Made by a program: the position numbers and the translations under genes
Assembly (NCBI GenBank): GCA_002897715.1
Contig: BDUA01000039.1
Location: forward strand, 244 to 64,243
DNA: 64,000 nt
Reading direction: 5' to 3'
Origin: a bacterium BMS3Abin01
Lineage (GTDB): Bacteria; Actinomycetota; Thermoleophilia; BMS3ABIN01
In this document: positions 1 to 22,747 of the stretch, piece after piece
Numbering within the stretch: the first letter of the stretch is position 1
Layout of the letters: each line of letters opens with the position of its first letter
Notes under the pieces: generated by a model
What the model saw: only the letters and a program-made list of their open reading frames with translations
Databases searched by the model: none
Told to the model about the DNA's origin: nothing

Positions 1-68
1 ACGTAGAGCCGCTGCCGGCGGGCGGTTTGGAACCGGACGATCGGGGGACGATTCCCAGTAGATAATCC

Positions 69-512: not shown

Positions 513-515
513 CCG

Positions 516-899: not shown

Positions 900-1124
900 C
901 TAAGTCCCACCTCATCCCCGCCCTTGCCCTGGTCATCTCCGGTCGTCATGGCAGACCGCCGCAAGCAGAAAGCCCCGGGCAAGCCTTCGGCTATTAGGCT
1001 CGCTCCGGAGCATTCGTCCAAACCAGAATCCCACTTACACTTTCACATGTATTATTTAATTTTACACTCTATCGGCAGAATATCATGATGCAGTTTCTGT
1101 ACGTTCTGGTTAATAATAACCAAA

Positions 1125-2612
1125 TTATTCGCTGGAGACGGCGCCGCGAACCCCCCGCAGCAACCACCAGTCGATGGGTAGCCCCCAGTACTGCCGCCGG
1201 CACCTGGCGGAACTGAGCCCGGTGGCCGCCTTGACATAAGCGGCGCGCAGGCGGCTGCGCGCCGCCCGGCGGCGCACCCATTCGGAGGGATAGCCGTAAA
1301 CCAGGTAGAACTCCCGCTGCTTCATGCGGTTCTGGAAACTCTTGCTCATCCAGGGCAGGCCCCCCTTCACGGTGCTGAACGCTGCCCACTCCTCTAGCGA
1401 GCCGGGGCCTTCAAGCCCCAGTTCCAGGGCACGGTCATACAGAGCGTTGCCCGGCGTGGGCGCGTAGAAGTGCAGCTGCGAATTGTACTCGCCGACGATA
1501 CGCGACACCTGTTCCATCACCTGCCAGGTCTCCTCTATCTCCTGCTCCGACTCGCCCGGGAAACCGACGATGTAGCTGTAGGAGATCTTGACGCCATGCC
1601 GGGTGGCCACCCGCGCCGCCTCCAGGATGTCCCGGGGCTCTATGTCCTTCTGCATGGTATGCAGCTGCGTCTCCGAACCGCTCTCGGCTCCCACCAGGAA
1701 GGCCCAGAGCCCGCTCTGCTTGAGGACGTCGAAGGTGGCGTCCTCGAACTTCCCCAGCTGCGGCGCCCGGGCGTTAGCGGCCCAGCCGAACCGCATTCCC
1801 TTCTCCACCATCTTCTGGGAGATCTCCACCGCGCGGCGTTCGTTGACGAAATAGGTGGAATCGAAATACATTATGCCGTTTACGCCCAGGAAGCTCTCCA
1901 GGAACTCCAGGTCGGCAAGCACCCTGTCAGGGGTATAGGCCTTCCAGCGACGCCCGTAGACCAGAGGCTCGGCGCAGAACTGACAGCGGGACGGGCAGCC
2001 CTGGCTGGAAACATAGTTGATCACGCGCGAACCCACGTGCATGTTGTTCAGGTATCGCCGGGGCTGCTCCAGCTTCTCGTAGGGCAGGCGGGGGAACCGG
2101 TTGATATCCGCCACCTTGCGCCCCGGGTTGGACACGGTCTCGCCTTCACGGGTGAAGGTTATGCCCTCCAGGTCGGAGAAATCCTCGCCCTGGCTCAGCC
2201 GGCCGGCCAGCGCCAGCAACGTCAGCTCCCCCTGGCCCCGCACCACCGCGTCGACGAACCGGTTGCGGCTGGTCTGCTCCGGCAGGATGGAGGGATGGTA
2301 ACCACCCCAGATAATGGGCAGCTTCAAGCCCGCCTGCCTCACGGCTTTCGCCGCCTCCAGCCCGAAATGTATCTGAGGCCCGGTCATGCAGCTGATGCCC
2401 AGCATCAGCGAGCCGCGGCACTCTTCCACCAGGCGCTGGCGCCAGTGCGGTTCCAGGTTGGCGTCCAGCAGCACCACATCGTACCCTTCGGCGAACAGGG
2501 GCGCGGACACCGCCATTATGGGTAGCGGCGCCCAGGTCCAGGGGTGATAGACCTTGTCGAAATGGTTCCTGGGATAAAGCAGGGTGATTTTCTTTCTGTT
2601 ATTCCTGGTCAT
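1125..2612 (-). CDS. Cobalamin-binding (class B) radical SAM enzyme
   Basis: N-terminal B12-binding-like Rossmann region (ITLLYPRNHF...VVLLDAN...IIWGGYHPS). CxxxCxxC motif 'CPSRCQFC' preceded by 'SSQG'. Domain order is typical of B12-rSAM methyltransferases. Confidence 0.8.
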   Translation of the reverse strand: MTRNNRKKITLLYPRNHFDKVYHPWTWAPLPIMAVSAPLFAEGYDVVLLDANLEPHWRQRLVEECRGSLMLGISCMTGPQIHFGLEAAKAVRQAGLKLPIIWGGYHPSILPEQTSRNRFVDAVVRGQGELTLLALAGRLSQGEDFSDLEGITFTREGETVSNPGRKVADINRFPRLPYEKLEQPRRYLNNMHVGSRVINYVSSQGCPSRCQFCAEPLVYGRRWKAYTPDRVLADLEFLESFLGVNGIMYFDSTYFVNERRAVEISQKMVEKGMRFGWAANARAPQLGKFEDATFDVLKQSGLWAFLVGAESGSETQLHTMQKDIEPRDILEAARVATRHGVKISYSYIVGFPGESEQEIEETWQVMEQVSRIVGEYNSQLHFYAPTPGNALYDRALELGLEGPGSLEEWAAFSTVKGGLPWMSKSFQNRMKQREFYLVYGYPSEWVRRRAARSRLRAAYVKAATGLSSARCRRQYWGLPIDWWLLRGVRGAVSSE

Positions 2613-2653
2613 AACCTGCCGTTCTGCCTGGTTTGTTTATTGGCCACAACAGC

Positions 2654-4315
2654 TCACCCGGGGTCCGTCTGGTTCAGCCTGAAGATCATTAGCTCACGAT
2701 CGGTCCCTTTATAAAGAGTCTTGACCAGCACCCATTGCGGGTGTTCATCCGCAGACGACAGCAGCTCGAAAAGTTCCGGCCGCCAGTCAGCAAGCTCCCG
2801 CTTGCCGATCACCAGGTAGTCGACGTCTTTCTCGCGGGCGTAATCAGTGGTGCTTTGATAGTCGGCGTAAGGAAGGATGACCTCTATCCCGTCAGCGTAA
2901 AAAGCCGGAGAATAATACCTGCTGAGTATCCTTTCCCCCGGTCCCGCAGTCTCCTTGATCCACTCACCCGCTACCCGGTATTCAGTCGGATAGCTTTTCC
3001 TCAGCACCGTGGATAACGAGAACAGCAGCAGCGGCGCCAGGACGGCGATACCCACCAGCCAGGGGACCCTGGACCGCCAGGACGAATGGCGTTCCTCGCC
3101 GAAGGACAGGAGTAGTGTCTCATCGCCCCATTGCTCCAGCCGCTGCCAGCCCTGGGCCACCCATATGGCTATCAGGGGCAGGAACGGCAGGAAGAAACGG
3201 TCATGCACATAGAAGGCGATGATGAACAGAGCCGGCAGCATTAGCAGAAGAAAATAGCCGACGCCCGCCGCCCGCCGGCGGTCCCAGCCACTGGCGAACA
3301 GACCAAGGCCCAGCAGCGGCAGCAGCCACAGCGGCAGTATCTTCGGCAGCTCCTCCGTGACAAGGATGTAGCCCTGCCGGGCAAAGACCTTGGTCGCCAG
3401 CACCGGCTCCCTGACGATATTCTTCAAGGGGTCGTTGTATTTATCGAGGCGCAGGGCGACAATGTCCTGTCCGTCGTCGGTGAGCCCCTGAAGCTTCTTC
3501 TCCCAGGCCAGGGTGCCGTAGCTGAGATCATGGGTAGCGGTATAGTAGTTGCCGCCGGTGGTTTTCCCACTATAGGTCCACTCGCCCAGCTCCGCGTGGA
3601 GGAAAACGAAGTAGGGTACGGCGTAAACGGCGAAGCACAGCAGGAAGATCAGCATGGCCTTGATCATCTGGCGCCACAGGCCGAAGTAAATACTCCGCGC
3701 CGCCAGCAGGGCCAGGAAAAGAACAGGATAATAGATGGCCGCGGGATTGGCGAGATAGGCAAGCCCCAGCGAGGCTCCCGCCAGCGTGCTGCATAGCACC
3801 CGGCACCCTCTGATCATGTGGAACCCGAACACAAATGCCAACGTCAGGAAAAAAACGTAGACGCTCTCGTTGTAGATCCTGGATGAGTAGTCAACAACCA
3901 GCGGCAGCACCGCGACGATCGCCGCCGCCATCAGCCCCACCCTCTCGCTGACGAACTCTTTCCCCAGCAGATAGGTCGGCAGCAGGATCAGGCTGCCGAA
4001 GGCTATCACGATCACGTAGGCGGCTACGACATAATCCCTGACAATGGTGGATAAACCGGCTATCAACAAGGGCAGCAACGGTGAGAAGTGGGTAGCGGTC
4101 CTGCCTACCTCGGTGATATCCTTCATGCCGTTTCCGGATACAAGGTCCTGCGCCAGGCGCACATAGGCGGTTTCGTCCAGCATGATCATCTGCCGCGACA
4201 GTACCGCTACGACGCGCACTATCATCGCCAGCAGGATCAGCAGGAACAGGATCCTGCCCGAACTCAGCCGGGGCCTGGTGACTGCATCTCTTGTTGTTTT
4301 CATATTTTCATCCAT
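2654..4315 (-). CDS. GT-C fold membrane glycosyltransferase, ArnT/PMT (GT39/GT83)-like
   Basis: About 11 TM helices. Conserved first-loop 'LDETAY' (DE motif of ArnT/PMT). C-terminal extracytoplasmic soluble domain. Confidence 0.7.
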   Translation of the reverse strand: MDENMKTTRDAVTRPRLSSGRILFLLILLAMIVRVVAVLSRQMIMLDETAYVRLAQDLVSGNGMKDITEVGRTATHFSPLLPLLIAGLSTIVRDYVVAAYVIVIAFGSLILLPTYLLGKEFVSERVGLMAAAIVAVLPLVVDYSSRIYNESVYVFFLTLAFVFGFHMIRGCRVLCSTLAGASLGLAYLANPAAIYYPVLFLALLAARSIYFGLWRQMIKAMLIFLLCFAVYAVPYFVFLHAELGEWTYSGKTTGGNYYTATHDLSYGTLAWEKKLQGLTDDGQDIVALRLDKYNDPLKNIVREPVLATKVFARQGYILVTEELPKILPLWLLPLLGLGLFASGWDRRRAAGVGYFLLLMLPALFIIAFYVHDRFFLPFLPLIAIWVAQGWQRLEQWGDETLLLSFGEERHSSWRSRVPWLVGIAVLAPLLLFSLSTVLRKSYPTEYRVAGEWIKETAGPGERILSRYYSPAFYADGIEVILPYADYQSTTDYAREKDVDYLVIGKRELADWRPELFELLSSADEHPQWVLVKTLYKGTDRELMIFRLNQTDPG

Positions 4316-4327
4316 CAGGTTGGTCCT

Positions 4328-6187
4328 TCAGTCCACTCTTCTATAGACCTTTATGCCGTCCTCTTCGAATATCAGCCGGTAGGGGCTGCCCGGAGCGACC
4401 ACGAAGCTGAAGGACCCCTCGTCATTATAAAGCGGGTTCCCGAACGGCTTCAGGATCACATAATCGGCTCGCTCCAGCTGTTCCAGGCCCTGCGGCAGCC
4501 GGTCCGGTTCCTCCGGTACTGCCCAGATCAGCGGCTCATACAGGCCCCAGCGCGATGAGAGCCGCGGAAAGACCCGTCCGTCGTTGGAGGCCACAGGAGC
4601 GTCCGCGGGCACCATATCGATCGCCTTGTCCAGGGCTGCTGCCGCCGCCGGCTTCCCCAGCGGCAGGTTATAGGTCCACAGGTGCGCGGCTGAACCGATC
4701 AGGGTAATGAATATCACCGAGAATATTATAGCTGTTCTGCGTCGATCCGCTGCCGGAACCCTTTGCTGCGCCCTGTTGATGAAACTGACGATACCCAGCC
4801 AGAGTGCTGATACTATCAAAACCGAGTAATGGGCGATCCCCCCCGCCGCCAGGGAAACATCATTGCTGCGCGCTAAGAATGTCGCCAGGTTCGGCAGTGC
4901 GAAGATACTCACCAGGCTGGTCCAGGGCAGGACCAGACCCATGGGCATGAGCAGATTGTAAACATAGCTTTTCTGCAAACGCCAGGTCTCCTCCAGGGCA
5001 TAAAGGGGGTGGCCTGCTATCGTTTTAACCATTTGCGCCGGCGAGTCGCCGAAATGCCCGTAATAAAAATTAAACACCCAGTGTTCGGTCGTGGCCGCGA
5101 ATATCAGTACCACCACCGACTGCCAGACGATCCAGGCCGCGAACGGCGCCACAACCCATTTCCAGGGCATGCGCTTCAATAACGAATAGAAGGAGAAGAC
5201 CAGGGCCACCGGGATAAAGTCTTCCCGAACCGTCAACACCATCAACAGAAAAAACATGAACAGGCCGAACCGCTTCTCCATGAAGAAATAAAAAGCCGCG
5301 AAGAAGAACACAGCGACGAAAACCACTTCATAACCTGAGGTAAAGTGCTGTGAGACTATCTCCGGATGGAACAGGAACGCCGCCGACAGCAACAGCCCGG
5401 CAATCCCGCTGCCGGTGAGCCGGCGGACACAATAAAACAGCGGGACCGCGGCCAGGGCCAGCGCCAGGCTCCTCAGCACCAGGATCGTTATCGGCGACTG
5501 GTACAGGGCATAAACCGGAAGGATCATCAACAGGAACGGCGATACGTGGGTGCTCAGGTAGCTACCGGAGGTCTCCTCCAGGGATGAATAAAAAAAATCG
5601 CCCCGAAGCGTCGCCCACAGGGTCTGATTGTACTGGGCCAGGTCACTGTGATAGCGGAACTGGCTGTAAGCCAGCAGGGCGAGCCCGGCGAACACCACAA
5701 AATACAGGGCCGTCCCCCCCCAGAGTATGCGTACTGAGTTTTTCTCCAGGGCGGCGGTCACCCTGTCTGAGCGCCGCCAGAATAACAGCAGCTTTATGCA
5801 GATGCTGCCGGCCACCGAGAGTCCCAGCAGCCATAGACAGAGCGCGGCCAGCCGGGTGGGCGATGGGTTCCCTTTCAGAAAGGAACTGAACACCCTGTGG
5901 CTGAGGTACGGCGAGGATAACGGGAAAACAATGAAAGGCACAAGGGAGACGGCGACCTTGCACGATGCATCCTGCAGGGGGAGGCCCGTCAACCTGGAAA
6001 CAATCCCGGATTCCGCCAGCCACACCGCCATCAGTCCCAGAGCCGCCGCCAGGACCGCCGCCAGCCGTGCCCCGGGCGCCCAGCCCAGCGCGCCCGTCAG
6101 CGCCCAGGCGAAGACCCCGCAACCCGCCGACAGCGCCGGCGGCAGCCAGGCCGTCAGGCGTTTTCTCAGGAGGACGGCTGCAGACAA
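4328..6187 (-). CDS. Large polytopic membrane protein with C-terminal extracytoplasmic domain (DUF2079-like / possible GT-C transferase)
   Basis: More than 12 predicted TM segments followed by a ~150-aa soluble C-terminus. No catalytic motif recognised. Confidence 0.5.
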   Translation of the reverse strand: MSAAVLLRKRLTAWLPPALSAGCGVFAWALTGALGWAPGARLAAVLAAALGLMAVWLAESGIVSRLTGLPLQDASCKVAVSLVPFIVFPLSSPYLSHRVFSSFLKGNPSPTRLAALCLWLLGLSVAGSICIKLLLFWRRSDRVTAALEKNSVRILWGGTALYFVVFAGLALLAYSQFRYHSDLAQYNQTLWATLRGDFFYSSLEETSGSYLSTHVSPFLLMILPVYALYQSPITILVLRSLALALAAVPLFYCVRRLTGSGIAGLLLSAAFLFHPEIVSQHFTSGYEVVFVAVFFFAAFYFFMEKRFGLFMFFLLMVLTVREDFIPVALVFSFYSLLKRMPWKWVVAPFAAWIVWQSVVVLIFAATTEHWVFNFYYGHFGDSPAQMVKTIAGHPLYALEETWRLQKSYVYNLLMPMGLVLPWTSLVSIFALPNLATFLARSNDVSLAAGGIAHYSVLIVSALWLGIVSFINRAQQRVPAADRRRTAIIFSVIFITLIGSAAHLWTYNLPLGKPAAAAALDKAIDMVPADAPVASNDGRVFPRLSSRWGLYEPLIWAVPEEPDRLPQGLEQLERADYVILKPFGNPLYNDEGSFSFVVAPGSPYRLIFEEDGIKVYRRVD

Positions 6188-7296
6188 TCCTGGTGCTCCT
6201 GTAGGAAGGCCAGAATGGTATCGATCACCTGGCCGAGCTGTGCCTGGTCGATCTCAGGGAAAACGGGCAGCGAAAGGATCTCCTTCACTATCCGTTCAGT
6301 GACCGGCAGGACCATACCCCCCGTCTCATCTGCATAAGCCGGCTGCTTATGCACCGGGACCGGATAGTGGACCAGGGTCCGCACCCCCCTGGTTGACAGG
6401 TACGACTGCAGTTCATCCCGCCTGGCTGTGCGGATAACGAACAGATGATAAACATGGCGACCCCATTCCCGCTCCACCGGCAGTATCAATCCCGAGCCGG
6501 ACAGCCCCCGGCGATAAACAGACGCCGCCCGCCGGCGCCTGTTCGAATATTCATCCAGCCTCTTCAGCTTTACCCGTAGTATTGCCGCCTGTATCTCGTC
6601 CAGCCGGCTGACGTCGCCCTTGTAGATGTTCAGGTATCGCTGCTGGCCCTGGCCGCAGTTGGCCAGGGAGCGGATCTTGGCCGCCAGGCCGCTGTCGGCG
6701 GTAACCACGGCGCCGCCATCGCCGCAAGCCCCCAGGTTCTTTGTGGGATAAAAACTGAAACAGCCCACGGTACCGATGGTCCCGGCGGCGCGCCCCTTGT
6801 ACGCGGCGCCATGGGCCTGGGCACAATCCTCTATCACGGCCAGTCCGTGTTCCCCGGCAAAAGCCATAATGGGGTCCATGTCCGCCGGATGTCCATAAAG
6901 ATGCACCGGCATGACCGCCCTGGTCCGGTCGGTCCTCACCCTTTCCAGCCCCTCCGTATTCATGCAGTATGTATCCTCATCCACATCCAGGAGAACCGGC
7001 CTGGCCCCGGTCTTGGAGATGGCCAGGGCCGTGTTCACCGCAGTATGGGAAACGGTGACCACCTCGTCACCGGCACCGATGTCCAGCGCCTTGAGCGCCA
7101 GGTACAAGGCATCGGTTCCGGAATTCACTGTGGCGACCTCCACCCCTCCCAGCCAGCGTCCGAATTCTTCCTCAAAGGCTTCTACGTTTTCACCCAGCAC
7201 GAAACAGCCGCCGGCAAGTACCCGGGAGACAGCCGCGTCTATCTCGTCTTTAAGGTCTTCATAACCGGCCTTCAGATCGATATAAGGAACATCCAT
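6166..7296 (-). CDS. DegT/DnrJ/EryC1/StrS (ArnB-like) PLP-dependent sugar aminotransferase
   Basis: Fold-type I aminotransferase signature: 'VLGENVEAFEEEFGRWLG', 'VNSGTDALYLAL', 'VTVSHTAV', 'FSFYPTKNLGACGDGG' (lysine region). Confidence 0.85.
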   Translation of the reverse strand: MDVPYIDLKAGYEDLKDEIDAAVSRVLAGGCFVLGENVEAFEEEFGRWLGGVEVATVNSGTDALYLALKALDIGAGDEVVTVSHTAVNTALAISKTGARPVLLDVDEDTYCMNTEGLERVRTDRTRAVMPVHLYGHPADMDPIMAFAGEHGLAVIEDCAQAHGAAYKGRAAGTIGTVGCFSFYPTKNLGACGDGGAVVTADSGLAAKIRSLANCGQGQQRYLNIYKGDVSRLDEIQAAILRVKLKRLDEYSNRRRRAASVYRRGLSGSGLILPVEREWGRHVYHLFVIRTARRDELQSYLSTRGVRTLVHYPVPVHKQPAYADETGGMVLPVTERIVKEILSLPVFPEIDQAQLGQVIDTILAFLQEHQDCLQPSS

Positions 7297-7298
7297 GA

Positions 7299-8390
7299 CT
7301 AGATGAATTCCAGGTGTTTCCGGTTTTCAACTATCCAGTCGCGCGCCAGCACGGCCGCCTCGTGGAACGGACAGTCGAACACGGCGCATTCCCTGGGCCT
7401 GGTGGCGTGAAACGCATCGAGGTGACGCCGGCTGTACCAGATCTCCGGAAAGCTCTTGTTATAGACATTGCCGATGCGGTGTGTTTTCTTGCGATGATGG
7501 AAAAAGGCGCAGAGGTACATGGTGCCGGTGGCGTCGATCACCGGATGGATGGGGTTGAGAAAGCAGCGTCCGATGACTTTCGTCTTTTCCAGGCTGCCGA
7601 AAACCTGGAATGATTCATCCGAGAGCTCCATGGCCCGCTGCGCGACTTCGCCGGCACGCTCCAGCTCATCGCCTTCCAGGGTGAACTTGCTGGCGCGCAG
7701 TGCCTTGTATTGAAGGTAATCCAGCCCCATGTCCCTGGCAAGCTCCGCGGCGACAGCCAGCTCCGGCCAGTTCTTGCTGGAAACCAGGTATTTAGCGCCG
7801 ATGGTGGCGCTGCCGTATTTTAACCGCCGCGCCGCGCCTTCCCCTTCCCCGGTTGTCCTGGTTCTCCGGTCTGCCAGATCCTCAAGATTCCTGACAAGGG
7901 TTTCGAACTCATCCCGCCCATGGATCTTCCGGTAGGTTTCCCGGGTGCCCGCGTCAAAGGCCACCCGCAGGAACAGCAGATTCTGCACCAGGAACTCCGA
8001 CAGCTCGTCGTTCAGCAGGGTGCCATTGGTGAACATCCCCACTTTCAGGCCCCGGCTGCGCATGAAGGCTATCGCCGGGACGATGCTGGGGTAAAGCAGC
8101 GGCTCCCCCCCTCCCGATATCTCCACTCCCTCCACCCCCAGCTCGGCTATGTCGGTCACGACCTCCTTGAAAATTTCGAAATCAAGAAAGCGCTCCTCGT
8201 CTTTGTGCATATACCGGGAATGGCAGCCGGCACAGGCGTGGTTGCAGGTATTGGACAGGAAGAACTCCATGGTGCGGGGAACGGGCATCTTGCCCTCCAG
8301 TATCTGCCGCACCTCGTGGTAGCAGGAAAGGATCTTCATCGCCCCGATGGGGATCTTGTCTACGCTAATCATGGTCAGCTTTCCGGTCAT
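7299..8390 (-). CDS. Radical SAM enzyme with C-terminal Cys-rich SPASM/twitch-like extension
   Basis: 'CNHACAGC' CxxxCxxC motif. Additional C-terminal cysteines (CFLNP...CAFF...CAVFDC). Translationally coupled to the downstream GT2. Confidence 0.75.
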   Translation of the reverse strand: MTGKLTMISVDKIPIGAMKILSCYHEVRQILEGKMPVPRTMEFFLSNTCNHACAGCHSRYMHKDEERFLDFEIFKEVVTDIAELGVEGVEISGGGEPLLYPSIVPAIAFMRSRGLKVGMFTNGTLLNDELSEFLVQNLLFLRVAFDAGTRETYRKIHGRDEFETLVRNLEDLADRRTRTTGEGEGAARRLKYGSATIGAKYLVSSKNWPELAVAAELARDMGLDYLQYKALRASKFTLEGDELERAGEVAQRAMELSDESFQVFGSLEKTKVIGRCFLNPIHPVIDATGTMYLCAFFHHRKKTHRIGNVYNKSFPEIWYSRRHLDAFHATRPRECAVFDCPFHEAAVLARDWIVENRKHLEFI

Positions 8391-10619: not shown

Positions 10620-10663
10620 GGCATGGAGGAATACATCGGCACATCCCCCCCTGGTTTTCAGTC

Positions 10664-11059: not shown

Positions 11060-11060
11060 C

Positions 11061-11426: not shown

Positions 11427-11450
11427 GGCAAAACCGGCATGGTTTGAACC

Positions 11451-12866: not shown

Positions 12867-12901
12867 GTGATGATCATCATCCGGATCAACCTCTCAACCT
12901 C

Positions 12902-14281: not shown

Positions 14282-14306
14282 AAGGGGCGGCGATATCCGG
14301 ACTGTC

Positions 14307-14993: not shown

Positions 14994-15082
14994 ACGATTG
15001 CTCCTTGGAATTAGAGGGTAGCATACGCCCCTGACTATCGCTACGCAGCCGTCTCGCGGCCCTTTCTCCCGGCTATGCCGGT

Positions 15083-15910
15083 TCAGGCCATGAAGGGGGA
15101 CCCGATGAAGGCACACAGTCCGTTGACGAATTTATCTCTTTCCCTGCCGCGAATCACATCGGAGGTCTCGTTCCTCACCGGACTGTCGGTCACCAGCAGC
15201 GCCATGGCGGTCTTCAGGCCCATATAGTTTGCCAGAGCGAACTGGCTGGACGCTTCCAGCTCTACCGCCAGCAGACCGTCCCGGTTCCAGGATGAGATTA
15301 GCTCCTCCGTCTCCCGGAAGACGGCGCCGGTGGTAACAATGGGCCCCTGTCTGACCGGTAACCCCCGCCCGTCGAGAAAACCGGCAAGAGCGGCGGTAAG
15401 CTCGGGGTCCGCCGGAACCAAGTCACCGTACTCATAGCCGTAATGGAGCGACAGGCAGTCGCCCGCCCGGGAGGACTCGGCCACGATGATGTCACCGCAG
15501 TCGATATCCTCCTGCAGGGCGCCGCAGGTGCCCAGGCCGATGACCGTATCGACGCGGGTGAACTTCAGGCTGCGCATGATGCCCTCCAGGATGACCGTCC
15601 CCGGCGGCACCCGCATATAGCCCACCAGCCGGCCACCGATATAGCCCGTGTACAGGGCGCCGAAATGCTTATGGCTACCCAGCAGGGGGCTGAGGAAATC
15701 CTCGCCCAGGGCCAGCAACATTACCCTGGGGGTAAAATCATGGGGGTCGCTTCCCTGGAAGACCCAGCGCTCAGAGGCGAAACGGATGAATTTTTCTTCC
15801 CAGTTGGTCATCATGTCTCCATTTACAATTTCATTATCCTTAAGCCACTCCCGTTCGTGTCCCGCCGCCCCCGGTGCCTGTATCATATCCCCCATCCGGA
15901 AACCGGACAA
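15083..15910 (-). CDS. MTA/SAH (5'-deoxyadenosine) nucleosidase family protein (Pfs/MtnN-like) with N-terminal extension
   Basis: Aligns by eye to E. coli MTAN: 'VIGLGTCGAL' vs 'SGIGKVAAAL', 'GDIIVAE...GYEYGDL' vs 'GDIVVSD...GYEYGQL', 'AVELEASS' vs 'AVEMEATA'. Confidence 0.75.
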   Translation of the reverse strand: MSGFRMGDMIQAPGAAGHEREWLKDNEIVNGDMMTNWEEKFIRFASERWVFQGSDPHDFTPRVMLLALGEDFLSPLLGSHKHFGALYTGYIGGRLVGYMRVPPGTVILEGIMRSLKFTRVDTVIGLGTCGALQEDIDCGDIIVAESSRAGDCLSLHYGYEYGDLVPADPELTAALAGFLDGRGLPVRQGPIVTTGAVFRETEELISSWNRDGLLAVELEASSQFALANYMGLKTAMALLVTDSPVRNETSDVIRGRERDKFVNGLCAFIGSPFMA

Positions 15911-16012
15911 CGCCGGCCGTAGCCGCTGGACTTCCGCCAGGGACTTCCATGTTCCATAACATGGTCGCGGGACGCAAGGACAGTCCCGCCGGCTGGACAG
16001 CGGGCGCCGCCG

Positions 16013-18562
16013 CTACACAGTGTAATCGCCGTGGATGAATCGCCGCGCATATTCGTCAGCGACCGCATCGCTGATCAACGGCGCATCCAGCTGGCGGGTA
16101 TAGGCCATGAGCCTGCCGACCTGATCCAGGACGCGCAGGGCTTCCGCCTCGTTCACGTTGGTGACCACGCCCGTGATCAAGTCTCCCTTTATCTCGGTCA
16201 CAAAACCAAAATGCCGGAGTATGGTTTCCAGCATGTGGACCCGCCGCACCCGTTTGGAGACGGCCGCCGCCCCGCCCAGAAAGCGGAAATAGACGTGATT
16301 ATTGACGGATTTGGTATCGACGAAAGCGTCGACTATGGTGAAATGGTAACCGAAACGTACGGCCAGGTTCAGGTAGCGCCGCGATATCACGGCCAGGTTT
16401 ATATGGACGCTGTCCTGGATATCCCCGGTGCGCATGCTGGCGGTCATCAGGTCCGACAGGCTGACGTTGCCTACGCTCTGGCGCCAGGCGCCCGGATGGG
16501 TCATCCCTTCAAGAACGGCCCGCAACGGCGCCGAATTCACCTGCTCCATGGAAACCTTTTTTTCCGTATCCGGCTTCAACCCGTCGCCGATGTCGATAAC
16601 ATGTATGTCTTCCATCAGGGAGATATCCAGCTGTTTGAGCGAAGCCCGCCGGTCGGCATACCGCGAGGAGTCGATCAGCTTCTGCATCGATTTTTCGTGC
16701 ATGAACCTGAGGATATCGTGGACGGTGCGGCAGCGTTCCGGCAGGAAATCATCGGTAAAGGGATTTACCAGGTTCAGCGGCGCGATGAACTTCATGATGT
16801 ATTTTTTCCGGCGGAACTCGAACAGCTCTTCCAGCTTGATGAAACTGTCGTGATGCCCGCCGATGATTCCAGTGGCCACCCCCCGGTACACCACCATGCC
16901 GCCATCCTCGCCGGCCTTCAGGGTGATCTCCTCGCCGGACTTTATCAGGTCGGTGGCGTTGCCGGCATTGACCACAGTAGGAACCCTGAACTCGCGGCTG
17001 ACTGAAGCCATATGGCTGGTGGCGTTGCCCGAATCGGTGATAATGGCCGCGGCGTAGGGCATGACGCGGACGAACTGGGGTGAATCGTTGCGCGCGACCA
17101 GTATGGCCCCCCAGGGAAAATCATCAAGGGTCGACGTTTCATCAACCATAAACGCCCTGCCGCCCACAACCCCCGGATAAACCACTATGCCCTGGTCGTG
17201 CATAAGCACCGGGTGCTCTCCGGCCGGTTGTGCGTCCACTGTTTTCGTGGTCTCCCCGCCGGCGGGCTCCTGTATCCTGAGGAGCCGTGACTGCAGGATA
17301 ACCACCCGTCCGTTCCGATCCAGCGCCCATTCGATATCCTGGGGCTCATGGTAAAAGTTCTCGATCTTCATCGCCTGCCGGGACAGCTCAGCCAGCTGTT
17401 CCTCATTGAGCGAGGGGGCGCGCTGCCGGTCGGCGGACACCTCACGCTCCTCCAGCCCGCCCGCCGCGGCCATAACGGCCATGGTGTCCTTCTTCCCCAG
17501 CCTGATCTCTTCCGGCTGGAAGGGGGGTGTCTTTTTTACCCGGAACGTATCCGCTTCGGTGAGATTGTCCACCACGGAGGTTCCCAGCCCCCAGGCGGAG
17601 TTGATCAGCATCGACTGCCGGTCTTTACCCATGGGGTTGACTGTATAAGCCACACCACTGGCGACGGCGTCCACCATGGCTATGACCCCCACTGCCATCC
17701 TCATGGCGGCGGGGCTGTAGTTGAGGTTCAGCTGATAGGCGATAGCATCTTCGGAGAACAGGCTGGCGACGACCCGGCGGTAAGCGTCCAGAACGGCGTC
17801 CACGTCAGGGGATACGTTCAATACGGTCTCGAACTGGCCGGCGAAAGAGAAGACCTCATCTTCCTCTTCACCGCTGCTGCGCACCGCCAGGCTGCAGGCG
17901 CCTTCACATTCCTGCCGCAGCCTTCCCAGCGCCTCCTCCACTTCCCTCTTCAGGGAGTCCGGGAACCCGCCCGCCATTACGCGGGCGCGCAGCTCCGCCA
18001 GCATGCCGGGCTCGTACTCATGTTCTTCCAGCTCGGCGAGGTCCTGGTCCAGATGGTTATGCCTGATGAAGTCATCGTAAGCGTGAACGGTGAGGACGAA
18101 CCCATCGGGGACCGCCAGCCCCACGGCGTTCTTTACCTGGGAAAGGTGGTAATTCTTGCCCCCCACCGCTTTCGCCGCCTCCGGCAGGATATCATCGAAG
18201 GATATCAGCCGCCGCTGAGCCCTCTTTGCCTGAGGGTTGAGCAGCTCCCGGATATGCAGGTCGATGCTGTTGAAAACCGGTTCAAGCTGCGGATACTGGC
18301 CATCAGTAAGCCGGTTGAAATCCGCCAGGGAAACCCGCATGGCCGTAGCCAGCTCGCTGTAGGCCTCCCGCATATAGGCGATGTCGAACAGGTACCCCCC
18401 GCTCATCTTTTCGCTCATGTCATTAATGATCTTCAGAGCGCGGTCGTTATCATCGAGGATCTTCTTGTAACCCTGGAATACGGACTGGATATTGACATGC
18501 CTGACTTGCAACTGACTTCCGTATCGCCCCAGCAGGGACCGCATTTTCTTCAGTATGGCCAT
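16013..18562 (-). CDS. PEP synthase / pyruvate phosphate dikinase family phosphotransferase (PPDK_N ATP-grasp + phosphohistidine swivel domain + divergent C-terminal domain)
   Basis: 'GGKNYHLSQVKNAVGLAVPDGFVLT' PPDK_N signature. Mobile-domain 'DSGNATSHMASVSREFRVPTVV' (TSHAAI-like phospho-His). The ~330-aa C-terminus does not resemble the canonical PEP-utilising TIM barrel. Confidence 0.7.
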   Translation of the reverse strand: MAILKKMRSLLGRYGSQLQVRHVNIQSVFQGYKKILDDNDRALKIINDMSEKMSGGYLFDIAYMREAYSELATAMRVSLADFNRLTDGQYPQLEPVFNSIDLHIRELLNPQAKRAQRRLISFDDILPEAAKAVGGKNYHLSQVKNAVGLAVPDGFVLTVHAYDDFIRHNHLDQDLAELEEHEYEPGMLAELRARVMAGGFPDSLKREVEEALGRLRQECEGACSLAVRSSGEEEDEVFSFAGQFETVLNVSPDVDAVLDAYRRVVASLFSEDAIAYQLNLNYSPAAMRMAVGVIAMVDAVASGVAYTVNPMGKDRQSMLINSAWGLGTSVVDNLTEADTFRVKKTPPFQPEEIRLGKKDTMAVMAAAGGLEEREVSADRQRAPSLNEEQLAELSRQAMKIENFYHEPQDIEWALDRNGRVVILQSRLLRIQEPAGGETTKTVDAQPAGEHPVLMHDQGIVVYPGVVGGRAFMVDETSTLDDFPWGAILVARNDSPQFVRVMPYAAAIITDSGNATSHMASVSREFRVPTVVNAGNATDLIKSGEEITLKAGEDGGMVVYRGVATGIIGGHHDSFIKLEELFEFRRKKYIMKFIAPLNLVNPFTDDFLPERCRTVHDILRFMHEKSMQKLIDSSRYADRRASLKQLDISLMEDIHVIDIGDGLKPDTEKKVSMEQVNSAPLRAVLEGMTHPGAWRQSVGNVSLSDLMTASMRTGDIQDSVHINLAVISRRYLNLAVRFGYHFTIVDAFVDTKSVNNHVYFRFLGGAAAVSKRVRRVHMLETILRHFGFVTEIKGDLITGVVTNVNEAEALRVLDQVGRLMAYTRQLDAPLISDAVADEYARRFIHGDYTV

Positions 18563-18568
18563 TACGGT

Positions 18569-18943
18569 TTAGGGCTTATCATCCGGGATCAACGCTTTCC
18601 GGATCGACTCCTTCAGTTCCTTGATCCTGACCGGCTTGGGAAAGAAGTCGAATACGTCCTCCTTGATGGCTTCGATGGCCACGTCCAGGTTGGCAAAAGC
18701 GGTTATCATGATGACCTTGGTATTGGGATACAGCTTCTTCACCGTCCTTAGAACCTCCAGGCCGTCGATATTCTTCATTTTCAGGTCGGTTACCACTACA
18801 TCGAAGGGCTGCTCCTCCAGCTTCTTCAGAGCCGGGCCGGCGTTTAGGAAAGTCTCCACCTCGTAGCCCTCTTCCTCCAGTGATATCTTGGCCATGTCTC
18901 CAACTATTTTCTCATCATCTATGATCATGATCCTGTGACTCAT
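18569..18943 (-). CDS. Stand-alone response regulator receiver domain (CheY-like)
   Basis: 'IMIIDDE...VVTDLKM...IMITA' with conserved Asp/Lys positions. No output domain. Confidence 0.85.
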   Translation of the reverse strand: MSHRIMIIDDEKIVGDMAKISLEEEGYEVETFLNAGPALKKLEEQPFDVVVTDLKMKNIDGLEVLRTVKKLYPNTKVIMITAFANLDVAIEAIKEDVFDFFPKPVRIKELKESIRKALIPDDKP

Positions 18944-20349
18944 GCGCTCCCTTTCTCCTGGTCGTTGACAGGTAGCTGAATAGTGAATGTAGTGCCCAAC
19001 CCCATGCGGCTGTCAACCTTGATATTACCGCCATGGGATTTGATGATACTGTAGCTCACCGACAGGCCCAGGCCGGTCCCTCCCTCCTCCTTGGTGCTGA
19101 AGAACGGATCGAATATATGGGGGATGTATTCGGAAGGTATCCCCTTGCCGGTGTCAGTAATCCTTATCTCCACCATGCCGTTTTCCGAATCAAGGCTGGT
19201 TCTTACGGTAAGCCGGCCCTCCGGCCGCATGGCCTGGGCGGCGTTGACAAACAGGTTTACCAGGACCTGCTGCATCTGGTTTTCATCCAGTAACAGCCGC
19301 GGCAACCCTTCGGCCAGCTCCACGCGGCTTTTGATATTGGCCACATTCAGGCTGTTCTGTACCAGCAGCAGCGCCTTCCTCAACAGCTCGTTGATGTCCA
19401 CTTCGCTGAGCCTGGGCTCCCTGGGTTTGGCAAAATCCAGAAGGTTATCGACTATCTGCTTGATCCGCTCCGACTCCTGGTCCACTTTCTCCATGAACTC
19501 CCGCCTCTGGGACGGGCTCAACTTGTCGTACATCTCTTCATATGTCTGGGCGATCATGGAGATATTGTTGACCGGGTTGTTGAGTTCATGCGCCACTCCG
19601 GCAACCAGTACGCCCATGGAGGCCAGCTTCTTGGACTGGATCAGTTCTTCTTCCCGCTGCTCCAGCTCCTCCGACATGGTGTTGATCGCCTCGATGACCA
19701 CCCCGAACTCGTCCCGGCGTATAGACGACTCGATCTTGCTGTAATCACCGGCGGCGATCGATCTGGCCTGGAGCTCTATGTACTTTATGGGCTTCAGAAC
19801 CATCCGGGAAACCACCCGGCTGACAATCAGCGCCGTCACTATCACGGCGAAGAAGGATGAGAACAGCAGCAGCTTGGACCGGTTGATGATGTTGCTGATA
19901 TGCTCCCGCTCCAGCTTGGTGATGCGGGAGGAGGTCTCCTCCAGATCATGTCCCTTCGCCCTGATATTGTCCGCGATCTGCTGGTTCCAGGAGTCATTAT
20001 CGATCGCCTCCGTTACCGCCACGTTATAATCGTAGAGTCCCTTTTCAAGCTGGTTATAACCTGACTCACCGATAACGGGGATAATGTCATCCTTCACCTC
20101 ATCCAGTACATCGTTAGCCTTGGAGATGTTGGTCTTGATCTCGTACAGGGCGGTGATGTTGTTAAACAGGAAATAGTTCTTTTCCGAGAGCCTCATCTCC
20201 AGAAAGGAAGTATTGAGGTCGTCGGCTATCTCCAGGAACCTTTGCTTGGAGCTGACGCTGTTCAGTGACTGGATGGCGGAACCACCGATGATCACGATGA
20301 GCACCAGGTAGATCGCGTTCAGGAGGATGATTTTTCGTTCGATCTTCAT
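18940..20349 (-). CDS. Sensor histidine kinase with extracytoplasmic sensor domain
   Basis: Two TM segments flank a ~150-aa sensor domain. H-box 'HELNNPVNNI'. HATPase_c 'DTGKGIP...GGTGLGLSVS'. Confidence 0.85.
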   Translation of the reverse strand: MKIERKIILLNAIYLVLIVIIGGSAIQSLNSVSSKQRFLEIADDLNTSFLEMRLSEKNYFLFNNITALYEIKTNISKANDVLDEVKDDIIPVIGESGYNQLEKGLYDYNVAVTEAIDNDSWNQQIADNIRAKGHDLEETSSRITKLEREHISNIINRSKLLLFSSFFAVIVTALIVSRVVSRMVLKPIKYIELQARSIAAGDYSKIESSIRRDEFGVVIEAINTMSEELEQREEELIQSKKLASMGVLVAGVAHELNNPVNNISMIAQTYEEMYDKLSPSQRREFMEKVDQESERIKQIVDNLLDFAKPREPRLSEVDINELLRKALLLVQNSLNVANIKSRVELAEGLPRLLLDENQMQQVLVNLFVNAAQAMRPEGRLTVRTSLDSENGMVEIRITDTGKGIPSEYIPHIFDPFFSTKEEGGTGLGLSVSYSIIKSHGGNIKVDSRMGLGTTFTIQLPVNDQEKGSA

Positions 20350-20352
20350 TAT

Positions 20353-21444
20353 TTATCGCACCGGGTCGGACAGCAGCCGTTCCAGCTTCGGTTCTTCCTT
20401 TCGGGTTGGCAGATACCATTGCAGCCCGTCGATGATCATCGTCCCGCCGGCCAGTATCAATATCAGACCCCACAAGGACACCATGTCCACCTGGAAATAA
20501 CGAACCAGGCCCAGGCCGATACCCAGAAAGACGATCCCGGTCCTGATGAAAGCCAGGCCGGTCCGCGCCCGGGCATACAGGGTCCTGTAGCAGGCGGCCA
20601 ATGTTCGTTGGGCGGCCAGTATATCGCGTTCACGGGCCAGGTGCGTCCGTTCACGGCTTTCCGGTTCCGGCCGCAACAGGGAACAGTAGCTGGGCAGAAA
20701 ATCTGTCAGCCGCGACAGCATGGTTGCCTTTGTTCTGGGCCTGGGCGCGTAATCAACCTGGTAGTCTTCCACGAAGCGCAGCGCCGCCCCCGTCACCTCA
20801 ACCAGGGTCTGCGGGCCCGGGGACCTCATCATCAAACGGCGCAGCTTCAGGTAAAGATAAAGCCCCACGCCGGTAATGGCTATTCCCGATACCAGCAGGA
20901 CCCAGTAAACAAGCTGGGTGAAGGTGAAGCTCCACCCCAGCACGGCGGAGGCGCTGGCCAGGGTGACGAAACCCAGCCCCCACCTGAGGACCGACAGCGA
21001 CACCCTGATCTTGGCGAGATCGGTGCGGTAGCAGGCCAGCCTGGTCCTCCAGGTAGCCATGGTGTTGCGCCAGTATGCCAGTCCGGTGCGTTCGGTGCCG
21101 ATGATCTCACCGGGCGGCGCGTTCAGATAGTCATCGATCATCCACCTGATATGCGATTCCGGAGCCACGCGCAACTCGTAGGGAGCGCCCCGGACCACCT
21201 TCCTCACCACTTCCATGTCAACATTTTCGGGGTCGGCGACCGCGACCACGATCCGGTCGCCATCCTTGATCACCGGGAACACCAGCGCCCGCGCCAGCAG
21301 ATCCGGATCCATGCCCTCCAGCAGTTCCGGCGGCACCGGCAGCCGTTCATCGTACTGGATGGACTCAATCCCGTATCTTCGCGACAGCTCCTTCAGAGCC
21401 TCCCCGCAGTCAGCCCAGTCCTGCTCCTGATCATAGGTCGTCAT
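20353..21444 (-). CDS. Membrane protein with N-terminal GspE/PilB N-terminal-like (T2SSE_N, second half) domain and tandem DUF202 (YidH-like) repeats
   Basis: 'ELLEGMDPDLLARALVFPVIKDGDRIVVAVADPENVDMEVVRKVVRGAPYELRVAPESHIRW' resembles the T2SSE_N fold. Repeated 'ERTxLAxxRTxLA' DUF202 units, each followed by TM helix pairs. Start moved to the Met at 21442-21444 to avoid a 125-nt overlap; the track start is 21555. Confidence 0.55.
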   Translation of the reverse strand: MTTYDQEQDWADCGEALKELSRRYGIESIQYDERLPVPPELLEGMDPDLLARALVFPVIKDGDRIVVAVADPENVDMEVVRKVVRGAPYELRVAPESHIRWMIDDYLNAPPGEIIGTERTGLAYWRNTMATWRTRLACYRTDLAKIRVSLSVLRWGLGFVTLASASAVLGWSFTFTQLVYWVLLVSGIAITGVGLYLYLKLRRLMMRSPGPQTLVEVTGAALRFVEDYQVDYAPRPRTKATMLSRLTDFLPSYCSLLRPEPESRERTHLARERDILAAQRTLAACYRTLYARARTGLAFIRTGIVFLGIGLGLVRYFQVDMVSLWGLILILAGGTMIIDGLQWYLPTRKEEPKLERLLSDPVR

Positions 21445-22747
21445 GGCTGAACACCACCTTACTCCAGCGACTTGCGGGTACGCCATAATTGGGCATGCCG
21501 ATCTCAAGGTCGCCGTAACAATAGGGGAACTGCTCCCTGACCTTCTCGGAAACACGGAACCAGCGCAATCCGTCCAGGATGAGCGTCATTCCCAGCATTA
21601 CCATGATAACCTCTATAATCACCCACATCAGACCGCCCGGCAGGAAGGTGATCAGACCCGCCCCAACCGCTGATATGCTGGTGCCGGTGCGGATAAAGGC
21701 AAGCCCGGTCCTGGAATGGGCCATCACCACCCTTAATCGCGACATCAGGTTCCGGCGCTCCGCCAGAACGGTCCGCTCCAGCGCCAGCCCGGTTGTACCC
21801 CATACACCGGGGGCGTGAGACGCTTTAACCGGCGGATAGGTATCCCGGAAACGATTGAGCGGCGGAAATTCAATATCCCAGATATTCTTTTCCTTGAGGG
21901 ACTTCCTGAATATCCTCATGGCTTTACTGCCGGCGCGATAGCCGGGTACGTACCAGTAAAACCCCTCCAGAGCCATGGCCGAGCCCACCACTATCAGGAA
22001 GATGTCGAAATAGGTCCAGACGCTGGCCGGAAAGCTCCTGATGAGGGCCAGCCCCAGTCCGGCAAAAGCCACGCCGGAGCGGGTAAAAGCCAGGCCGATG
22101 CGCGTTTTGGCCATGATCGTCCTCAGCGAAGCATAGGCGGTGCGGTCCTCTGCCATGTCGGTGCGGTCGTTGGCCAGGAACCTCCGGCGCTCCACCGGCG
22201 CCAGTTCGTTCCAGCCGGCGCGGAGCTGCTCCGCGCCCCTGACCGCGTCGCTACGGAAATAACGGGGGTCCGTGAGCTCGTCCGCTACGCCCAGCACAGT
22301 TACTCCCGGCTCCCTGGGAGTACTCTCGTAACCCAGATTACGGGCAGCGTCCTTGCGCACCGGTAAATACCATCTGAGGCCGTCAAGGATCATCACCACC
22401 CCCGCCGCCAACAGCGCCAGGTCGAGCGTCAGGATGACGGCTCCGGTGCCGAAAAACCGCGTAAAGGAAACGGCGATGGTTACCATGGCGATGCCGGTAC
22501 GGAAGAACGCCAGGCCGGTCCTGCCCTTTGCCAGAGCGGTCCGCTGTGAAGACAGCGCCGACCGGCGGCCGGACAGATGGGTCCGTACCTTCGCCAGAGG
22601 TGTCCTGCCGGCGAAAGGAGGGAACCCCGGGTTCAGGTCCTGCCGGACCCCGGTGGTCTGGGTTTCCCCGGTAGATTCGCCGGAAGAATATGCCCCCCCG
22701 GTCATCAAGCCTGATTCCGCTTCATCGGAGTGATTACTCTGTCGCAA
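21431..22747 (-). CDS. Membrane protein with three or four tandem DUF202 (YidH-like) repeats
   Basis: Repeated 'NDRTxxAxxRTxxAxxRTGLAFxRTG' units, each followed by two TM helices. Paralogous to the adjacent gene. Confidence 0.6.
   Translation of the reverse strand: MRQSNHSDEAESGLMTGGAYSSGESTGETQTTGVRQDLNPGFPPFAGRTPLAKVRTHLSGRRSALSSQRTALAKGRTGLAFFRTGIAMVTIAVSFTRFFGTGAVILTLDLALLAAGVVMILDGLRWYLPVRKDAARNLGYESTPREPGVTVLGVADELTDPRYFRSDAVRGAEQLRAGWNELAPVERRRFLANDRTDMAEDRTAYASLRTIMAKTRIGLAFTRSGVAFAGLGLALIRSFPASVWTYFDIFLIVVGSAMALEGFYWYVPGYRAGSKAMRIFRKSLKEKNIWDIEFPPLNRFRDTYPPVKASHAPGVWGTTGLALERTVLAERRNLMSRLRVVMAHSRTGLAFIRTGTSISAVGAGLITFLPGGLMWVIIEVIMVMLGMTLILDGLRWFRVSEKVREQFPYCYGDLEIGMPNYGVPASRWSKVVFSHDDL

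Follow-up and report, generated by a model that had tools for sequence, protein, structure and literature searches.

Decoration of extracytoplasmic glycans by way of lipid-linked donors is well understood. The Arn pathway, which places 4-amino-4-deoxy-L-arabinose on lipid A, employs a DegT aminotransferase, a GT2 glycosyltransferase that loads undecaprenyl phosphate, tailoring of the sugar on its carrier, a heterodimeric small flippase of the EamA/SMR type, and a GT-C transferase. A synthase for the lipid-linked donor, a flippase and a GT-C enzyme that decorates a pre-made polymer are also common to the three-component systems, such as GtrA/B/C, CsbB/GtcA/YfhO, the Citrobacter youngae PPPRS/MATE/GT136 system with its auxiliary epimerase, the mycobacterial PpgS-Rv3632-Rv3779 system (GalN), and MtxS/MtxT (for MtxS, PMC12088412); auxiliary enzymes can alter the carrier-linked sugar (PMC11127046; PMC8035078). 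Radical S-adenosylmethionine (SAM) enzymes work on sugars in other settings. HpnI/HpnJ/HpnK and the calditol synthase Cds pair a GT2 with a class-B-type radical SAM enzyme on a lipid-linked hexose or hexosamine (PMC13459092), and the AprD4, DesI/DesII, BtrS/BtrN, BlsE and GenK systems bring radical SAM dehydratases, dehydrogenases, deaminases or decarboxylases together with DegT-type aminotransferases. Here we analyze a locus at positions 1125-15910 of a 64,000-nucleotide (nt) stretch, hereafter the window, from bacterium BMS3Abin01 (contig BDUA01000039.1 of assembly GCA_002897715.1, positions 244 to 64,243). We read it as probably an envelope-glycan decoration locus, with two Arn-like three-component branches in which radical SAM and pyridoxal-phosphate (PLP) enzymes tailor carrier-linked sugars.

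BMS3ABIN01, which takes its name from this MAG (metagenome-assembled genome), is an uncultured order of Thermoleophilia, predicted to consist of anaerobic sulfate reducers (PMC13503563, PMC7563247). What is known about its locus is the lipid-linked decoration scaffold; what is new is the presence of four class-B and one twitch radical SAM enzymes within that scaffold, together with a widespread pair of genes, GT2b and rsC, for which we found no paper in the literature searched and no matching curated family. The original prediction, made from the sequence of the window, had not recognized this as a described pathway. That judgment stands for the pathway as a whole, as no description of it was found in the literature searched, while the scaffold itself is a known kind of system.

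Gene content and conservation of the locus

The conserved unit comprises 13 genes in three transcription units: four class-B radical SAM enzymes (rsA to rsD, each with B12-binding and Radical_SAM domains), one twitch/SPASM radical SAM enzyme, a DegT aminotransferase, two GT2 enzymes without transmembrane (TM) helices, an ArnE/ArnF-like small membrane pair, two GT-C enzymes (PMT_2 and DUF2079, after their Pfam families), and a PNP-family enzyme. A tightly packed series of minus-strand open reading frames (ORFs) runs from 1125 to 15910, broken by two small plus-strand ORFs. Unit 1 consists of PNP (15083-15910; PNP_UDP_1), GT2b (14307-15116; Glycos_transf_2), rsD (12902-14281) and rsC (11451-12866). 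Unit 3 consists of rsB (9177-10619), GT2a (8365-9180; Glycos_transf_2), the twitch radical SAM gene (7299-8390; Radical_SAM and SPASM), DegT (6166-7296; DegT/DnrJ/EryC1 family), DUF2079 (4328-6187), PMT_2 (2654-4315) and rsA (1125-2612). The remaining unit is the divergent plus-strand pair of EamA/SMR-like small membrane proteins, sm1 (10601-11059) and sm2 (10983-11426). Most junctions overlap or are at most 41 nt apart, and start/stop overlaps are present. Comparison with orthologues corrects the probable starts of rsB (a TTG at 10571, giving 464 amino acids, aa), GT2b (14993, 228 aa) and PNP (near 15814, about 243 aa). Scans for consensus promoters and terminators returned nothing more than weak matches, located 5' of the starts of PNP and rsB.

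The order of these genes is kept in at least 15 species-level metagenome-assembled genomes (MAGs) at 50-80% amino-acid identity, far beyond chance co-location, and the conservation in relatives on which the original prediction was staked is thereby borne out. These loci come from a scan with an alignment of the rsC family, one genome per species, in which 80 loci (numbered with the prefix L) were kept from 272 relatives; L001, L002 and L006-L022 are labeled Actinomycetota, except for L006, which carries no phylum label, and L019, which is labeled 'archaeon'. All 13 genes stand in the order of the window in L001, L002, L007-L009 and L021. A second form of the locus (L012, L014, L017) is without rsB and the twitch radical SAM gene and has a different DegT and GT2; a third (L013, L015, L018, L020) is without rsD, DUF2079 and rsA and has two PMT_2 genes. 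Two GT2s and two GT-Cs are kept in every locus sequenced through both modules (L001, L002, L007-L009, L012, L014, L017, L018, L021). The class-B paralogues assort independently among the relatives, and rsA always accompanies DUF2079-PMT_2.

Both GT2 enzymes resemble polyprenyl- or dolichyl-phosphate sugar synthases. GT2b (Glycos_transf_2, 89.5 bits) has AglJ as its best NCBIfam match (136.7), followed by a DolP-hexose transferase and PpgS, and GT2a (81.6 bits) has PgfS, PpgS and ArnC, all of them below cutoff. No TM helix is predicted for either protein, and the two are 26% identical. The GTG start of GT2a overlaps the rsB stop codon (GTGA, 4 nt), as it does identically in L001; two GT2s, one of them coupled to a radical SAM gene, are thus present as predicted. 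The pair sm1/sm2, encoded on the opposite strand in 13 loci, has three or four TM segments per protein and sub-threshold matches to EamA, SMR and ArnE/F. For sm2 (probable start 11061, TM segments predicted) these are ArnF 43.4 (cutoff 99) and ArnE 31.2 (cutoff 92) in NCBIfam and EamA 24.6 and Multi_Drug_Res 19.9 in Pfam; for sm1 (probable start 10664, four hydrophobic segments predicted, divergent from rsB) they are ArnE 24.5, ArnF 18 and EamA 21.6. The claimed ArnE/ArnF-like pair therefore holds in that ArnE and ArnF are the best NCBIfam matches, though at scores below cutoff.

Two GT-C transferases had likewise been claimed, and both are found, so that the GT-C transferase required by three-component systems is present by the PMT_2 score and by the DUF2079 fold. 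The PMT_2 protein scores 29.5 bits against a gathering score of 26.1, has about ten predicted TM segments, and carries an invariant D47 in an 'LDET' loop. The DUF2079 protein, 100% identical to BMS3Abin01_00796 of bacterium BMS3Abin01, matches its Pfam family at 127.5 bits, and D182 in its first outer loop is invariant. Its AlphaFold2 model (pLDDT 88.4, pTM 0.90) was compared with the PDB by Foldseek: the top 21 matches are all GT-C structures, ArnT first (also PglB, DPY19, STT3, ALG9 and PimE), and at E<=1e-3 only GT-C structures appear, at probability 1.00. The modeled structure indicates that DUF2079 is a glycosyltransferase of the GT-C fold; we found no papers on DUF2079 in the literature searched. 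A further large polytopic membrane protein had been listed beside these two, and no such transferase-like protein occurs within 1125-22747.

How closely does the unit follow the Arn pathway? The corresponding ORFs have ArnB, ArnC, ArnE, ArnF and ArnT among their best matches, but no equivalog cutoff is reached (ArnC scores 46.6 and 29.9 against 529, and ArnB 229.5 against 631), and ArnT is matched at the level of fold only. The description of a complete Arn-like toolkit does not survive, as there is no gene resembling ArnA (UDP-GlcA dehydrogenase/formyltransferase) or ArnD (deformylase). Conversely, five radical SAM enzymes have no Arn counterpart, GT2 and GT-C enzymes are present in two copies each, and an actinobacterial host with an LCP ligase makes a wall polymer a more likely acceptor than lipid A. 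Compared with the three-component systems, PpgS is among the best matches of both GT2s, but these lack the C-terminal TM helices of GtrB, and the flippase resembles ArnE/F and is not of the GtrA or MATE type. No three-component system with radical SAM enzymes is described in the literature searched.

The radical SAM enzymes and the GT2b-rsC pair across phyla

Five class-B radical SAM ORFs had been predicted in the window, and all five (the four of the unit and rsE, at 38105-39457 on the minus strand, also B12-binding and Radical_SAM) exceed the gathering scores of PF02310 (42.7-77.4 bits against 32.1) and PF04055 (68.6-96.5 bits against 29.5), rsD scoring 77.4 and 92.9 respectively. Each has one CxxxCxxC motif. 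The extended motif (S/T)xRGCPxxCxFC, which had been ascribed to every copy, is exact in three of the five; rsA has Q for R and rsB has Y for F. The cluster cysteines are C206/210/213 in rsA, C224/228/231 in rsB, C213/217/220 in rsC and C202/206/209 in rsD. The four enzymes of the unit are ancient paralogues, with mutual identities of 20-33%.

None of the five reaches a curated NCBIfam cutoff. The strongest match of rsC is to HpnJ (272.5 bits, over its full length), followed by BchE (191), and its best PDB relatives are AprD4 (104) and QCMT (92). For rsB the order is HpnJ (202.7) and AprD4 (120), with AprD4 (104) and QCMT (74) in the PDB. The scores of rsD are spread over BchE (190), the Sden_1168 P-methyltransferase (188), ApyD (188) and BzaD (176), with AprD4 (80), TsrM (75) and QCMT (65) in the PDB, and those of rsA over HpnJ (121.6), a ladderane-type family (111.9) and BchE (109.5), with QCMT (78) and AprD4 (55) in the PDB. 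The HpnJ cutoff (TIGR03471, 577.6 bits) is reached by none, rsD and rsE scoring 159.5 and 90.6. Identity to PGAP-named HpnJ is 30.8% for rsC and 28.8% for rsB, and to BchE 28% and 22%. An N-terminal insertion and a W-x-C-N cysteine are common to rsB, rsC, HpnJ and a Lawsonia enzyme, and are not found in rsA, rsD, rsE or BchE. By sequence, rsC looks HpnJ-like but is not HpnJ, rsB appears to be an HpnJ/AprD4-like class-B enzyme, and rsD a generic BchE/methyltransferase-like one. Four additional cysteines of rsC (C22, C286, C306 and C382) are invariant in 20 members of the rsC family from several phyla, which hints at an additional metal or cluster site; we know of no such site described in class-B enzymes.

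Not every enzyme of this appearance uses cobalamin. ArsL is a class-B look-alike that binds none. AprD4 also resembles class-B enzymes yet binds no cobalamin (PMC12931638), and cofactor use can therefore not be read from sequence by itself. In profile comparison, the N-terminal domain of the rsC family aligns with the cobalamin-binding domains of TokK and OxsB and not with the non-binding N-terminus of AprD4. DxHxxG is absent, as in structurally known class-B enzymes, in which cobalamin is base-off and the protein provides no ligand to cobalt. At the 'lower axial' position, which separates radical methylases from other class-B enzymes, W76 of TokK aligns with Thr/Pro86 of the rsC family, in an alignment too remote to trust.

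The sixth radical SAM enzyme (Radical_SAM, 61.3 bits) has a SPASM domain (PF13186, 32.3 bits against a gathering score of 21.5). Its invariant cysteines are C49/53/56 and, toward the C-terminus, C276, C294, C335 and C340; these last four are invariant in 30 homologues. As a full SPASM domain has seven, the enzyme is twitch-like, which narrows the earlier assignment to a SPASM/twitch type. Foldseek places its AlphaFold2 model (pLDDT 89.6) closest in the PDB to DesII (E 5.5e-16) and BlsE (TMt 0.72). DesII and BlsE act on sugar nucleotides. The predicted DegT aminotransferase is confirmed by Pfam (E 5.5e-113). Its NCBIfam scores for ArnB, PseC (226.6) and DesI (163.8) are all below cutoff, and it appears to be a PLP sugar aminotransferase nearest to ArnB and PseC. 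No NAD-dependent oxidoreductase able to supply it with a ketone is encoded in the cluster, and Pfam finds no SDR, formyltransferase or deacetylase domain in 1125-15910. The PNP-family protein (PNP_UDP_1, 83.8 bits; NCBIfam DeoD 50.6 and HpnG 38.6, below cutoff) has PNP, MTAP and MTAN as PDB relatives, and in 15 Actinomycetota loci the first gene of the cluster encodes an orthologue of 242-261 aa. We considered an HpnG/HpnH-type adenosylation for the PNP and radical SAM enzymes and rejected it, since scores reached only 38.6 against 187 for HpnG and 40.9 against 225 for HpnH.

Beyond the Actinomycetota, rsC is the most widely conserved member of the unit. Orthologues 44-51% identical occur in MAGs labeled as more than 12 phyla, including Nitrospirota, Elusimicrobia, Saccharibacteria and other Patescibacteria, Desantisbacteria, Omnitrophota, Planctomycetota, Clostridia, Zixibacteria, LCP-89, Calditrichaeota, Woesearchaeota and Nanoarchaeota; bin labels may be wrong, as in L019, the 'archaeon' that is clearly actinobacterial. 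Paralogues within those loci are at most 35% identical. In 32 of the 78 loci that extend upstream of rsC, its immediate upstream neighbor is a GT2b orthologue (43-57% identity), and the two genes often overlap by 4 nt. Within 10 kb of the rsC orthologue, 71 of 85 loci have a GT2 or GT9 and 36 of 85 have a GT-C-like protein. Also recurrent as neighbors are PMT_2-TPR and YfhO GT-Cs, SDR sugar epimerases, Bac_transf proteins and more class-B enzymes. A class-I methyltransferase adjoins rsC in about 20 loci, and two Planctomycetia MAGs encode rsC fused to a C-terminal class-I methyltransferase domain of that same family (L076:10001-12175 and L074:59-2269; B12-binding + Radical_SAM + Methyltransf_11).

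Several of these loci have features of their own. A RACo-type corrinoid reductive activase (Fer2, RACo middle and RACo C-terminal domains) is encoded in five of them (L034:12684-14210, L047, L073, L078 and L084), in L034 next to a run of GT2, rsC, GT9 and a class-B radical SAM gene; such neighbors indirectly support real cobalamin, Co(I), chemistry around rsC-type enzymes. In seven loci from Zixibacteria, LCP-89 and unclassified bins (L037, L041, L044, L046, L049, L056 and L068, about 1-12700 in each), five to seven tandem class-B genes are followed by an rsC orthologue, a GT9 and one more class-B enzyme, and after these by an SDR epimerase, a GT2 and a fusion of GT2 with Bac_transf, an array that is unusually dense for a glycan context. 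Distant, class-B-like radical SAM homologues of rsC (about 30% identity) are found among glycan genes on plasmids of cultured Desulfovibrionaceae, namely Lawsonia intracellularis plasmid 1 (L086; NC_008012, 4621-19221) and Solidesulfovibrio carbinolicus pDCAR1 (L087); the Lawsonia cluster encodes GT2s, GalE, a pair of small membrane proteins with DUF2304, an SIS protein and five class-I methyltransferases, as well as a DUF2142 protein.

We tentatively suggest that GT2b and rsC could together form an ancient module of two genes, in many cases coupled in translation and in some lengthened by fusion to a class-I methyltransferase. It is possible that, across phyla and perhaps domains, from Thermoleophilia to the candidate phyla radiation (CPR) and DPANN, the module makes a radical-SAM-modified polyprenyl-phosphate sugar that GT-Cs use in the envelopes of anaerobes; the BMS3ABIN01 version, with two donors, would be the most elaborate. 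If true, this would constitute a new class of lipid-linked glycosyl donor, for instance a C-branched, deoxygenated or epimerized sugar made without oxygen or NAD.

Proposed pathway and competing explanations

Three-component systems divide the work among a cytoplasmic GT2 that synthesizes a polyprenyl-phosphate sugar, a small flippase that carries it outward, and a GT-C that transfers it; here this scheme would be doubled. Precedents exist both for such systems (PMC8035078) and for tailoring at the polyprenyl-phosphate stage (PMC11127046). The substrates, the use of cobalamin, the types of radical SAM reaction and the acceptor given below are proposals, and our confidence in any specific reaction is much lower than in the architecture. 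GT2b and GT2a would each load a common hexose or hexosamine from its nucleotide sugar onto polyprenyl phosphate. In branch 1 (PNP-GT2b-rsD-rsC), rsC and rsD would modify the carrier-linked sugar at unactivated carbons. In branch 2 (rsB-GT2a-twitch radical SAM-DegT), radical chemistry would turn a secondary alcohol into a ketone, by DesII/BtrN-type dehydrogenation on the twitch enzyme, AprD4-like diol dehydration by rsB, or both, and DegT would transaminate it to an amino or amino-deoxy sugar; the absence of an NAD-dependent oxidoreductase from the cluster is what suggests a radical origin for this ketone. An ArnE/ArnF-like heterodimer would then flip the donors across the membrane, and DUF2079 and PMT_2 would each pass one of them to an extracytoplasmic acceptor, most likely the neighboring LCP-anchored Wzx/Wzy polysaccharide, with a protein or lipoglycan also possible. 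The constant companion of DUF2079-PMT_2, rsA, probably has a part in the further tailoring of one donor. Both 5'-deoxyadenosine and S-adenosylhomocysteine are product inhibitors of radical SAM enzymes, and the PNP-family enzyme would most likely clear one or both of them from the five SAM-consuming enzymes.

This architectural reading is strengthened by synteny, by the GT-C fold of DUF2079, and by the recurrence of GT2, class-B radical SAM and GT-C genes together in other phyla. Several observations weigh against it. Every family assignment below the superfamily level is under its cutoff. The specificity of GT2a and GT2b is taken from best hits and context only, and the acceptor is assigned by adjacency alone. 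Profile-profile comparison of DUF2079 with PMT_2 gives a probability of 14%. The DesII and BlsE matches of the twitch enzyme have TM-scores of 0.6-0.7, barely above those of maturases of ribosomally made, post-translationally modified peptides (RiPPs). DegT enzymes normally act on nucleotide sugars, so that tailoring could precede transfer to the lipid. If rsB or rsC carried out an HpnJ-type ring contraction, no glycosyl-phosphate donor usable by a GT-C would be left. Finally, all related loci come from MAGs, in which binning or assembly errors are possible.

The original prediction went further, proposing that a single lipid-linked amino sugar, or the polyprenyl carrier, is C-methylated repeatedly by cobalamin-dependent class-B methyltransferases and then transferred to the envelope. 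Its outline (a lipid-linked sugar pathway of Arn type, radical SAM tailoring, an envelope acceptor) is kept in our reading; repeated C-methylation of one sugar or carrier lacks specific support, and we consider it unlikely. In favor of the idea, most characterized class-B enzymes are methyltransferases (PMC12931638), and it is compatible with PF02310 in all five ORFs, with the TokK/OxsB-like N-terminus of the rsC family, with the C-methyltransferase QCMT as nearest solved relative of rsA, and with the RACo-type activases beside related class-B enzymes. The tandem arrays of other phyla suggest iterative chemistry, and a methylated donor would still be usable by a GT-C. However, no ORF reaches any methyltransferase-family cutoff: the best scores are 188 against 575 (Sden_1168, rsD), 122 against 650 (HpnR, rsD) and 121 against 360 (QCMT family, rsC). 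Clustering with non-methylating enzymes, named in advance as evidence against methylation, is found in part, in that rsB and rsC are closest to HpnJ and AprD4; the top scores of both are to HpnJ and then to AprD4 or BchE, all non-methylating. Divergent paralogues that assort independently point to different reactions or substrates, and the doubled set of GT2 and GT-C enzymes implies a second donor. Moreover, methylation already has a source in the ordinary class-I methyltransferase that often adjoins rsC or is fused to it, and rsE lies outside the conserved unit.

The resemblance of rsB and rsC to HpnJ raises another explanation, the remodeling of a glycolipid head group in the manner of HpnI/HpnJ/HpnK or calditol synthase (precedents in PMC13459092). 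Here a GT2 would glycosylate a lipid alcohol and a radical SAM enzyme would contract the (amino)hexose to a carbocyclic, ether-linked cyclitol resistant to acid and hydrolysis. HpnJ is the nearest named family of both enzymes and shares their N-terminal insertion and cysteine; Burkholderia hpnJ adjoins the GT2 gene hpnI much as rsB adjoins GT2a, and the twitch enzyme with DegT could provide the amino group that HpnK deacetylation provides in hopanoid producers. Identity to HpnJ is nevertheless only about 30%, close to the 28% for BchE, and neither score comes to half of the equivalog cutoff. A genuine hpnJ has hpnI and hpnK as its flanking genes; here GT2a and GT2b have no HpnI match, the scanned ORFs of the window include no match to HpnI, HpnK, HpnH or a cyclase, and the context is neither hopanoid nor tetraether. 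Two GT-Cs and an ArnE/F-like flippase would not be needed, the conserved neighbor is a polysaccharide locus, and ring contraction removes the very glycosyl-phosphate bond that a GT-C needs; we regard this explanation as decidedly unlikely. A diffusible aminoglycoside-like or aminocyclitol natural product, tailored by AprD4-, DesII- or BtrN-like enzymes and DegT, seems very improbable. Among solved structures, rsB, rsC and rsD all have AprD4 as their best relative, the twitch model resembles DesII and BlsE, and DegT enzymes are typical of aminoglycoside-type pathways. Those pathways, however, act on soluble pseudo-oligosaccharides or nucleotide sugars in antibiotic biosynthesis, whereas the GT-Cs, flippase pair and carrier-type GT2s of this locus point to a carrier lipid and the envelope. 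Pfam finds no inosose or cyclitol synthase, resistance gene or typical exporter in the cluster, and its order-wide conservation beside a wall-polysaccharide locus is unlike the patchy distribution of secondary-metabolite clusters. The preferred reading remains envelope decoration through two carrier-linked donors.

Surroundings of the locus and wider meaning

The boundaries of the unit are narrower than first drawn. Of the earlier span, 1125-22747, the part up to 15910 is conserved, and the rest is a lineage-specific insertion (16013-22747): it is shared only with L006, a MAG 95% identical to the window, is missing from the syntenic loci of other species, with PNP abutting Wzx in at least ten genomes, and coincides with a fall in GC content to 0.548. 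It encodes five unrelated proteins (a PEP-synthase-like protein, a response regulator, a histidine kinase and two MshEN/DUF202 membrane proteins), and we ruled it out as part of the system on the grounds of its restriction to L006. The PEP-synthase-like protein (16013-18562, minus strand; 849 aa) combines a PPDK_N ATP-grasp domain with a swivel His domain, an arrangement known from PEP synthase, rifampicin phosphotransferase and PigC, and has about 290 C-terminal aa with no family match; its gene adjoins the two-component system.

Beyond the insertion, at 22887-33316, Pfam identifies a Wzx/Wzy-type wall polysaccharide locus with a Wzx flippase, GT4s, a Bac_transf initiating transferase, Wzy_C and an LCP ligase. 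In at least ten related genomes the PNP gene directly abuts this locus, and on the basis of adjacency its product is the most likely acceptor polymer. The fifth class-B gene, rsE, lies 22 kb away, past housekeeping genes and those for ROK kinase, DUF362 and RsmI, and its product is only 22-28% identical to the other four. In its sequence and its surroundings within the window we found nothing tying it to the conserved unit, which leaves four class-B enzymes in the system rather than five. At 37441-39400 (minus strand), rsE is followed by a class-I methyltransferase gene whose product shares 25-33% identity with the methyltransferase family that adjoins rsC in other phyla, and the two may form a separate small tailoring unit.

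Farther downstream, two c-di-GMP-I riboswitches were found, one at 45690-45776 (minus strand), directly upstream of a GH26 + Big_7 gene (44107-45681), and one at 55674-55752 (plus strand), upstream of unannotated ORFs at 55939-58069. The insertion encodes an MshEN-domain membrane protein (20353-21555, minus strand), of a family that we take to bind c-di-GMP. With two such riboswitches and this protein, envelope and exopolysaccharide functions of the region appear to be c-di-GMP-regulated; no cobalamin riboswitch was found in the window by Rfam. Additional envelope genes lie within 46136-50949 and 58441-61788; their products include a PgaC-like GT2 accompanied by a polysaccharide deacetylase, and a surface protein of 1115 aa that carries disaggregatase-related repeats. 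At 49378-50949 a third PMT_2-like protein is encoded, which scores 25.4 bits, just under the 26.1 gathering score.

If the radical SAM enzymes act on carrier-linked sugars, the locus would yield new sugar structures and new class-B reactions in the envelopes of abundant uncultured subsurface anaerobes. The rsC family is a compact and highly conserved target for enzymology that could show whether HpnJ-like enzymes methylate, rearrange or dehydrate, and the distant versions on the plasmids of Lawsonia intracellularis and Solidesulfovibrio offer a possible cultured entry point. That CPR, DPANN, Omnitrophota, Elusimicrobia and Planctomycetota also have the core pair suggests that it marks a general trait of anaerobic envelopes that has gone unrecognized.

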